From: Comamonadaceae bacterium
GTDB taxonomy: Bacteria > Pseudomonadota > Gammaproteobacteria > Burkholderiales > Burkholderiaceae_C
Direction: 5' to 3'
Length of the DNA stretch: 64,000 nt
Assembly: GCA_008080595.1 (NCBI GenBank)
Contig: VIKI01000004.1
Location: 30,212 to 94,211 of the forward strand
Below the pieces are notes generated by a model that was not told the origin of the DNA, made no database searches, and saw only the letters and a program-made list of their open reading frames with translations. The position numbers and the translations under genes were made by a program. Positions 11,484 to 14,087 of the stretch are shown in pieces (position 1 is the first letter of the stretch; the number at the start of each line of letters is the position of its first letter).

Positions 11484-14087
11484 TCAAATATCAATATTTC
11501 CGGCTTGTAATGCGTTGGTTTCGATGAATTCACGACGGGGTTCGACTTCGTCACCCATCAACATGGTGAAAACGCGGTCAGCTTCAATAGCATCGTCAAT
11601 CTGAACTCGCAGCAAGGTTCGCACGGTCGGATCCATGGTGGTTTCCCACAGTTGCTCGGGGTTCATTTCACCCAGACCTTTGTAGCGCTGGCGCGAGGTA
11701 GAGCGTTCAGCCTCGCCAATCAACCAGGCAATGGCATCGCGGAAGTCAGCAACTTTTTGCTCTTTTTGACGATCGCCTTCGCCACGTGTCACTTTGGCCC
11801 CTTCAGAGAGCAGGCCTTTGAATGTTTTTGCGGCCTCTGCCAGTGCCGCGTAATCTGCGCCATGCACAAAGTCTTGCGTCAAAACACTGCTTTTGATGTT
11901 GCCATGCAAACGACGGCTGATGCGCAAAATGGGTTTGTCGGTACGTACATCAAATTCACCGACCACTTCTGCGTCTGGCAACTGGGTTTGCAATGCTGCG
12001 GCAGAAGCTTCTGCATCAGCCACCGTGTCGAGGTTCAAGGCCACGCCATCGGCAATAGCCCGCAGCGCAGATGCATCTAAAAAGTGAGCTAGTCGCGCAA
12101 TTACTGCTTGGGCTAGCTGGTGTTTTCGTGCCAATTCTGCGAGGGGTTCACCAGTGAGCGCGGTGCTATTGCCCCCCCCTGTGTTCACGGTGGCATTGAT
12201 CAGTGCTACGCGCAGCAAAAAATTGTCCAGATCGGTCGGGCCTTGCAGGTAGAGTTCTTCCCTGCCAGCTTTGACCTTGTACAGCGGCGGCTGGGCAATG
12301 TAGATGTGGCCACGCTCCACCAGTTCTGGCATCTGGCGGTAGAAGAAGGTGAGCAGCAGGGTGCGGATGTGGGCACCGTCAACGTCCGCGTCAGTCATGA
12401 TGATGATGCGGTGGTAACGCAGCTTGGCCGCATCAAAGTCGTCATTTCCAGTGGAGCCACCAGCCTTGCCGATGCCGGTACCCAGTGCGGTGATCAGTGT
12501 CAGGATTTCGTTGCTGGTGAGCAGTTTTTCGTAACGCGCCTTTTCAACGTTCAAAATCTTGCCACGTAGCGGCAGGATCGCCTGGAACTTGCGATCACGG
12601 CCTTGTTTGGCGGAGCCGCCGGCGGAGTCACCCTCCACAATGTAGATTTCGCACAGCGCCGGGTCTTTTTCCTGACAGTCGGCCAGTTTGCCGGGCAGCC
12701 CCATGCCGTCGAGCACGCCTTTGCGGCGGGTCATATCGCGGGCTTTTCGGGCGGCCTCGCGGGCGCGGGCCGCTTCGATGATTTTTCCGACGATGATCTT
12801 GGCATCGGCCGGGCGCTCTTGCAGGTAGTCGTAAAGCAGCTTGCTCACAATGTCTTCAACCGGGCCACGCACTTCGGAGCTGACCAGTTTGTCCTTGGTC
12901 TGGCTGCTGAATTTGGGCTCGGGAACTTTCACGCTCAGCACGCAGGTCAAGCCTTCGCGCATGTCGTCACCAGTGACCTCCACCTTGGCCTTTTTGGCAA
13001 TTTCGGTGTCGTCAATGTATTTGTTGATGACACGTGTCATGGCGGCGCGCAGGCCGGTCAGATGGGTACCACCGTCACGCTGGGGAATGTTGTTGGTGAA
13101 GCACAGCACTTGTTCGTTGTAGCCGCTGTTCCACTGCATGGCCACTTCGACCCCGATGTTGGTGTTCTGGTCGCTCTGGCGGTCACCCATGGCGTGGAAG
13201 ATGTTGGGGTTCAACACCGTTTTGCCTTTGTTGATGAAGTTGACAAAGCCCTGAACACCACCTGCGCCGGAGAAATCGTCTTCCTTGCCGCTGCGTTCGT
13301 CCTTCAGGCGAATCTTGACACCATTGTTCAGGAAGCTCAGTTCCCGCAGGCGTTTGCTCAAGATTTCGTAGTGAAACTCATTGTTTTCCTTGAAGATGTC
13401 GGTGTCGGGCAGAAAGTGCACCTCGGTGCCGCGCTTCTCGGTTTCGCCAATCACTTTCATGGGCGAGACTTCGATGCCGTTTTGGGTCTCCACGATACGG
13501 TTCTGCACAAAACCCTTGCTGAACTCCATCACGTGCACCTTGCCATCGCGGCGGATGGTCAGGCGCAGCATCTTGGAGAGCGCATTGACGCAACTCACAC
13601 CCACGCCGTGTAAACCACCTGAAACTTTGTAACTGTTCTGGTTGAACTTGCCACCTGCATGCAACTCAGTCAAGGCGATTTCGGCCGCACTGCGCTTGGG
13701 CTCGTGCTTGTCATCCATCTTGACACCGGTGGGAATACCGCGCCCGTTGTCCACCACACTCACCGAATTGTCGGAGTGGATCGTGACCAGAATGTCATCG
13801 CAATGCCCCGCCAAAGACTCGTCAATCGAGTTGTCCACCACCTCAAACACCAGGTGGTGCAGGCCCGTGCCATCGGAGGTGTCGCCGATGTACATGCCGG
13901 GGCGCTTGCGCACGGCTTCAAGGCCTTCCAGAATCTGGATCGAGCCTTCGCCGTAGGCTTCCGATGCACCTGCTTGATGAGCATCAATGGTGGGTTGAAA
14001 GTTGGAGCTGTCCACCGTACTTTCGCCCGTGTGAACGGTGTTCTCAGTGGCTTGCGTTGGTACGGCGGGCTTGTTTTCTTCGGTCAT
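11484..14087 (-). CDS. gyrB: DNA gyrase subunit B
   Basis: [37 protein letters not shown]. Confidence 0.99.
12073..12127 (+). repeat. Element R2, inside gyrB (antisense)
   Basis: GCATC-TAAAAAG-TGAGC-TAGTC-GCGCAA-TTACTGC-TTGGGC-TAGCTGGT-GTTTT; local run of CGA/CTA/GTA/TTA codons. Confidence 0.65.

Follow-up and report, generated by a model that had tools for sequence, protein, structure and literature searches.

A 66-bp DNA motif dispersed in the genome is selected or driven in place within the gyrB coding sequence of a Rhodoferax clade

Introduction

How does an essential gene come to carry a second message on its opposite strand? The first-pass annotation of the window (the whole 64,000-nucleotide stretch analyzed here) pointed to 19 consecutive codons of gyrB, an A/T-ending patch in a GC3-rich gene, which were said to spell a double palindrome on the opposite strand. 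It proposed that this DNA motif is selected or actively written inside the gene, and that a passively inserted repeat would not explain it. A dispersed DNA signal that rewrites the proteome is known from only two families of bacteria (PMC2817400). Here, we ask whether the gyrB segment belongs to a dispersed motif, how it arose and what maintains it. The source genome, that of a freshwater bacterium, was placed in Rhodoferax (Comamonadaceae) through its relatives.

Results

The gyrB segment matches a dispersed motif in a register-specific manner

The 19 codons correspond exactly to GyrB residues 654–672, and 14 of them end in A or T, as had been annotated. Their GC3 of 5/19 is the lowest value of any 19-codon segment of the gene (tied with overlapping windows), the gene mean being 0.67. 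On the opposite strand, the patch falls within a copy of a 66-bp motif (Table 1), in a helix-aligned stretch according to an alignment to 3NUH; we take this stretch to belong to the long insert that GyrB has in its TOPRIM region. An independent sequencing run from another study gave an identical site, and a 96%-identical relative, represented by a single low-depth contig, had five synonymous changes that left the AGC and GCGC boxes untouched. An Rfam search of the window returned a tRNA as its sole match and none for the motif. Elsewhere in the window (7754–9569), a PEP carboxykinase-like gene occupies two overlapping frames (7754–8605 and 8388–9569), a possible frameshift or assembly error.

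Table 1. Features of the gyrB locus, in window coordinates
Feature	Position	Strand	Remarks
gyrB (DNA gyrase subunit B, 867 aa)	11484..14087	-	after dnaA-dnaN
66-bp motif copy	12071..12136	+	antisense to gyrB codons 651–673; 22.1 bits
A/T-ending codon patch	12072..12128	-	GyrB 654–672; GC3 5/19
Left A-tract	12078..12083	+	Phe669 TTT, Leu670 TTA
Near-invariant AGC(T) box	12087..12090	+	AGC is the Ala667 codon GCT, retained in 12/12 carrier species
GCGC-W box	12095..12100	+	codons of Ile663, Ala664 and Arg665
G-S-G-C-T-A-G box	12108..12116	+	rare Leu658 CTA, Ala659
Right T-tract	12123–12126	+	
Nearest other motif copy	10288..10353	+	21.9 bits; 1.8 kb downstream of the gyrB site

To score the match, we used a 66-column profile trained on ~960 genomic copies, with the gyrB site left out of training. 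The genome contains ~960 copies above 20 bits, the motif carries ~57 bits of information, and shuffled genome DNA gave no match above 10 bits. The gyrB site scored 22.1 bits, as compared with a mean of -41.9 (sd 9.2) for synonymous recodings of the same peptide and a ceiling of 27.5; synonymous changes reach 92% of the attainable range. None of 2,000,000 recodings, under three codon models, reached the observed score, which lies far outside the synonymous-shuffle background that had been named as a check. The z value was 7.0; 2000 profiles with permuted columns and a preserved A/T preference reached no more than 5.15, and same-strand shifted registers at most 3.3. These results show that the gyrB match depends on its register and is no artefact of A/T preference.

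An origin by chance, from local A/T bias or from translational pausing at the codon level would suit the low score of the site for its family and the nature of its peptide, more permissive than any other among 5058 gyrB segments. The z value above all permuted profiles and its dependence on register speak against such an origin, as do the G/C-ending codons used where the motif requires them and the element-free genomes with an identical or near-identical peptide, which score at the synonymous mean. The recoding and permutation tests refute this explanation, which we regard as barely credible.

The gyrB copy was neither inserted nor copied in

No gap occurs at the site in ~100 gyrB orthologues or against E. 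coli GyrB. The missing indel and the local GC3 dip agree with what the first-pass annotation expected, and a passively inserted repeat is no explanation, as it held. The gyrB copy is among the weakest of the genome, with 954 of 963 copies outscoring it. The nearest genomic copy differs from it at 25 of 66 positions and all others at 25 or more, and the longest in-register run common to it and any other copy is at most 13 nt. Agreement with the consensus comes in boxes of 3–5 nt, interrupted by mismatches that the protein forces. The gyrB copy is neither inserted nor copied in. As for the double palindrome, the motif match stood, while the palindrome itself is only partly spelled in the sequence (left pair 2/5 complementary, right pair 5/6) and its arms do not covary in the family, so that selection does not act on the palindromic appearance.

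The motif family has the features of a rigid duplex site

Among the genomic copies, the palindrome arms showed no covariation (complementarity was as expected, with mutual information of ~0.01 in the arms), and covariation was confined to neighbouring columns, mainly those of A versus T tracts. Fixed boxes repeat every 10–11 bp, with columns ranging from 0.99 fixed to background; copies differ pairwise at a mean of 30 of 66 positions, and their spacers are not homogenised. The geometry is rigid, since the correct spacing gave 252 matches in genome G000 and a spacer one base short gave three. The lack of arm covariation, the fixed boxes and the rigid spacing, taken together, point to a duplex site on which a reader acts as a filter, rather than to a hairpin or a copied master.

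These features bear on active writing, in which a RAYT, recombinase or reverse transcriptase would copy a master onto partly matching DNA and the tolerated conversions would survive. Such a process could account for the (A/G)TAG box before the inverted repeat, which resembles that of GTAG REPs, for a chromosomal Y1 transposase gene with a copy at its 3′ end, for doublets that divide cassettes on contig C96, and for some intergenic copies that differ between relatives with a change in length. It is at odds with the graded columns, the high divergence between copies, the unlinked arms and the short runs shared by the gyrB copy; moreover, 98 of 108 syntenic sites are shared with G036. RAYT was rejected as the driver, the Y1 gene being present in 130 of 144 genomes, element-free ones included, with one adjacent copy only. 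We consider active writing improbable, and at gyrB this half of the original proposal is largely refuted: the boxes are broken by protein-forced mismatches, even the nearest copy is distant and the spacers differ.

The Y1 (RAYT-like) gene itself (L201:957-1655; G000 C231) is chromosomal and single-copy, lies upstream of gltB, looks domesticated and is kept at 70–94% identity in most Rhodoferax genomes. Contig C96 of G000 (L208:4442-11879) has six ~205-bp doublets, each a plus-strand motif, a 75-bp spacer and a minus-strand motif; the spacer is conserved, hairpin-like and found only there. The doublets separate small cassettes (toxin-antitoxin-like pairs, ORF6N-type genes, an ATPase) in an integron-like array, and a search of the contig for a tyrosine recombinase gave no match.

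Copies favour gene 3′ ends and also lie within host and phage genes

By our own gene calls, 244 of ~1010 copies lie deep within genes, where they are under-represented and prefer one frame, most often the antisense frame seen in gyrB; in-gene copies reach a median of 85% of their attainable match and are shared with G036 without indel. Convergent gene gaps hold 171 copies in 252 gaps as compared with 65 in 489 divergent gaps, and copies are also biased toward gene 3′ ends. Both strands are used, with no replichore bias (70 vs 54, p 0.18; one complete genome, strict pattern), and the strand polarity or origin-terminus distribution that characterizes KOPS, matS and SlmA sites was not found in one complete genome. 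Spacing was random in 1.2 Mb of G036 (KS p 0.79, CV 0.93, exponential not rejected). Unshared DNA was depleted in copies, with 0.11 per 10 kb against 1.8 (one copy in 90 kb unshared).

In the window, mnmE carries two copies (20172–20237 and 20569–20634), shared with G036 without indel and erased in G073; murU and two oxidoreductase-like genes are among the hosts of the copies at 62357–62422, 47546–47611 and 48415–48480, also shared with G036 without indel. Several in-gene copies of G000 lie in DNA-maintenance genes identified by peptide motifs (recG, mutL, polA, rarA and a rep-like helicase). Viral contigs (L375, L360, L361, L352, L337, L362 and L336) have copies of 35–76 bits within phage genes, namely those for the terminase large subunit, portal, primase-helicase linker, DarB-like and large polyvalent proteins; long ORFs contain 29 of the 64 viral copies.

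The gyrB site was gained stepwise in one clade and decayed in descendants that lost the family

The derived peptide A-H-F-L-D (residues 667–671) and the motif codons were common to 12 sampled species. Besides the invariant Ala667 codon, CTA was kept at Leu658 in 8/12 and at Leu666 in 8/12, CTA making up 1% of Leu codons. Of the 241 invariant four- or sixfold degenerate columns in carriers, six had an A/T-ending majority codon; three of the six are inside the site, and the AGC box was the only one fully fixed. Synonymous identity among carriers, averaged over the 23 site codons, was not above the gene average. Synonymous constraint at the gyrB site is limited to the boxes. The prediction of synonymous constraint only in lineages with the family thus held for the confinement of the site to carriers and for the boxes, and failed for the segment as a whole.

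Trees built without the site placed all carriers inside one well-supported Rhodoferax clade. The match attainable by the peptide was at most ~5 bits in outgroups, ~17 for the intermediate G-N-F-M-D and 26–27 for the carrier peptide. Thus, the gyrB site was gained stepwise in one Rhodoferax clade, by amino acid and synonymous changes. A nested group with 0–4 strict copies genome-wide, and genome G100, kept a permissive peptide with scores near the synonymous mean. The retention of rare codons at fixed boxes and the decay after loss of the family support the claim that the motif is selected.

A single clade of site-bearing and derived genomes was rejected on the whole gyrB (p-AU 0.0013) and on its 5′ part, and was not rejected on its 3′ part (p-AU 0.33); a single origin of the site would be compatible with the 3′ part of the gene and is rejected on the mosaic 5′ part. 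In the 5′ half, gyrB codons ~176–300 are mosaic between Rhodoferax species, and dapF identity ranks disagree with those of gyrB. Many element-rich genomes had no gyrB site, and carrying the motif family is necessary but insufficient for it.

Other copies lie near gyrB. Many element-bearing genomes have one exactly at the gyrB stop codon (L011, L040, L045, L050, L051, L060, L081, L090, L116 and L118); carriers with a strong stop-codon copy had weaker internal sites, a possible compensation (p 0.04, from non-independent genomes). Another clade has a copy immediately upstream of gyrB (L082, L083, L112, L121, L130 and L133). In L021 (G006:C91) and L077 (G088), the GyrB open frames of ~1440–1475 aa have a large internal insertion, possibly an intein. 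The copies at or near the gene would suit a site that locally regulates gyrB, the tRNA downstream of it or the origin region. The internal site is, however, one of ~960, among the weakest and absent from most element-bearing genomes, and comparable sites occupy unrelated genes in both orientations; we judge local regulation very unlikely.

Sites at unrelated loci disappear together

We compared element-bearing ('on') with element-free ('off') genomes. Under labels drawn partly from flanking matches, hence not fully independent of the scored sites, and with related genomes that are not independent of one another, sites above 30 bits were present in 20/20 on and 0/11 off genomes for dapF, 18/18 and 0/11 for recG, and 15/18 and 0/11 for cca. 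Scores at these three genes were bimodal over ~30 genomes with constant local length, and no indel was seen at the dapF and recG sites. The consensus has lineage variants, and the strict pattern mis-scores genomes with a variant consensus (G033, G035). The off genome G073 had one match above 20 bits in 735 kb. All 40 orthologous in-gene sites there scored at most 7, 32 of them without length change, and our search for clean deletions, which covered ~23% of this genome, found nothing convincing. About 19 of 110 sampled Comamonadaceae genera were on and the others near the control level; other families of the order had at most three matches. This simultaneous decay at unrelated loci suggests the loss of a trans-acting factor.

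The search for such a reader gave no convincing on-specific gene among the compared loci. comEC and a ComP-family pilin were present in on and off genomes alike (30 genomes), as were pilQ, comEA-like, comM and dprA (five genomes), presence showing neither activity nor specificity. These genes, together with those for H-NS and TfoX, were set aside as candidate readers, as none tracks the on/off state (most were compared in five genomes). comEC was not found in G000, which is 89% complete. comM is split by 32–37 kb in two genomes (G036:C1:4489791-4528177, ~37 kb, an on genome; G014:C3:87943-121830), and dprA is apparently split over two frames in the on genome G031 (G031:C17:51682-52208).

Comparison with known dispersed sequences

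The motif resembles the USS of Pasteurellaceae and the DUS of Neisseriaceae (Findlay and Redfield 2009, PMC2817400), which also occur as hundreds to thousands of dispersed copies in both orientations, arise by mutation without insertion, are under-represented in genes with preferred frames, reshape proteins and are scarce in recently acquired DNA. It differs in that their cores are 9–12 bp as compared with 66 bp and ~57 bits here, the motif being twice the USS length; in its density of ~0.18 per kb against 0.8–0.9, with few inverted pairs; and in its random spacing, theirs being more even than random.

Spaced motif pairs were reported without function in Polaromonas naphthalenivorans CJ2 and Acidovorax ebreus TPSY (Tong et al. 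2017, PMC5217627, Table 7). Both pairs fit our profile with their published spacers (columns 15–20 with 43–48, and 27–32 with 38–42), and they share the convergent-gene bias. That report is limited to short word pairs and covers neither the 66-bp unit nor overprinting within genes, on/off decay by lineage or copies in phages.

GTAG REP, BIME and REPIN elements with RAYT (PMC3733652) are likewise abundant, biased to 3′ ends and convergent gaps, sometimes within genes, and have a TAG box before an inverted repeat. REPs in genes are described as insertions and form hairpins, whereas the motif shows mostly no length gain, no arm covariation and no Y1 link; of the features of REP/REPIN-RAYT systems, neither hairpin selection nor dependence on a cognate RAYT nor spread by insertion was found. 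That paper makes no mention of these genera in its main text. Rickettsia palindromic elements are also repeats in coding sequence, but are in-frame insertions, unlike the motif. The BRE of Betaproteobacteria (PMC3110155), also found in coding sequences, is a different element of ~90 bp, with a GC content of 69% and no more than 29 copies. A full-text literature search for the core motif gave no match.

Discussion

The gyrB site is real and selected in place. Selection or drive in place, exerted by a trans-acting reader of duplex DNA, is very probably what maintains it. In our model, a factor encoded by the host would recognize the 66-bp motif and read the DNA duplex across about six helical turns, marked by fixed boxes 10–11 bp apart and interchangeable A or T tracts. 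Phased A/T tracts are also a feature of the USS. A better-matching allele would gain a graded advantage independent of its location, and sites would accumulate by point mutation wherever tolerated, mostly at gene 3′ ends and also in pliable protein segments. At gyrB, amino acid steps would have raised the attainable match from ~4 to 17 and then 27 bits, after which synonymous changes would have filled the range, and lineages losing the system would revert to background.

The advantage may, by analogy, lie in biased DNA transfer, that is, an uptake-signal-like molecular drive in natural transformation, a reading that we hold tentatively. The mosaicism of gyrB within the clade counts in its favour; the competence genes in on and off genomes alike and the random spacing count against it, and the phage-gene copies also fit an in-cell function. 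Because competence genes do not track the motif, its spacing is uneven and it is twice as long as the USS, we do not file it as an uptake sequence.

A possible, less favoured reading is that a lineage-specific chromosome protein binds the motif inside the cell, with ordinary selection at each site; it would serve to organise the chromosome, to handle supercoils where genes end or to protect DNA that bears the motif as a self-mark. A long and rigid site, with A/T tracts in phase and covariation between neighbours only, would suit such a protein, as would the enrichment in convergent gaps and scarcity in divergent ones, the copies within phage core genes, the weaker internal sites beside strong stop-codon copies, and an on/off state independent of competence genes. 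It fits less well with random spacing that has no origin, terminus or strand pattern, with the many on genomes in which the 2 kb around the gyrB position lack a copy, and with H-NS in both classes. The presence of ~960 mostly stronger sites would also make selection on a single weak site harder to explain; that such a site is held near its ceiling leads us slightly to prefer uptake-like drive.

What is new here is the gain-and-loss history of the gyrB site under a rising amino acid ceiling, the matched on/off states at four genes, the copies in phage core genes and the readers excluded. On balance, we lean toward regarding the motif as a third, independently evolved and much longer self-DNA recognition signal, of 66 bp and restricted to part of the Comamonadaceae, which would be served by a multi-turn DNA-binding machine and would have been switched off repeatedly, as a new uptake system or a self-marking system of an undescribed kind; this signal would be strong enough to remodel the genes for gyrase, RecG, DapF, CCA and phage terminase and portal proteins. 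If so, a third such signal, whose site has twice the length and whose sister lineages are naturally on or off, would allow drive to be tested against selection; pairs of closely related strains are available, and the gyrB site could be removed by synonymous recoding. In these lineages gyrB, a common phylogenetic marker, bears a lineage-specific non-coding constraint.
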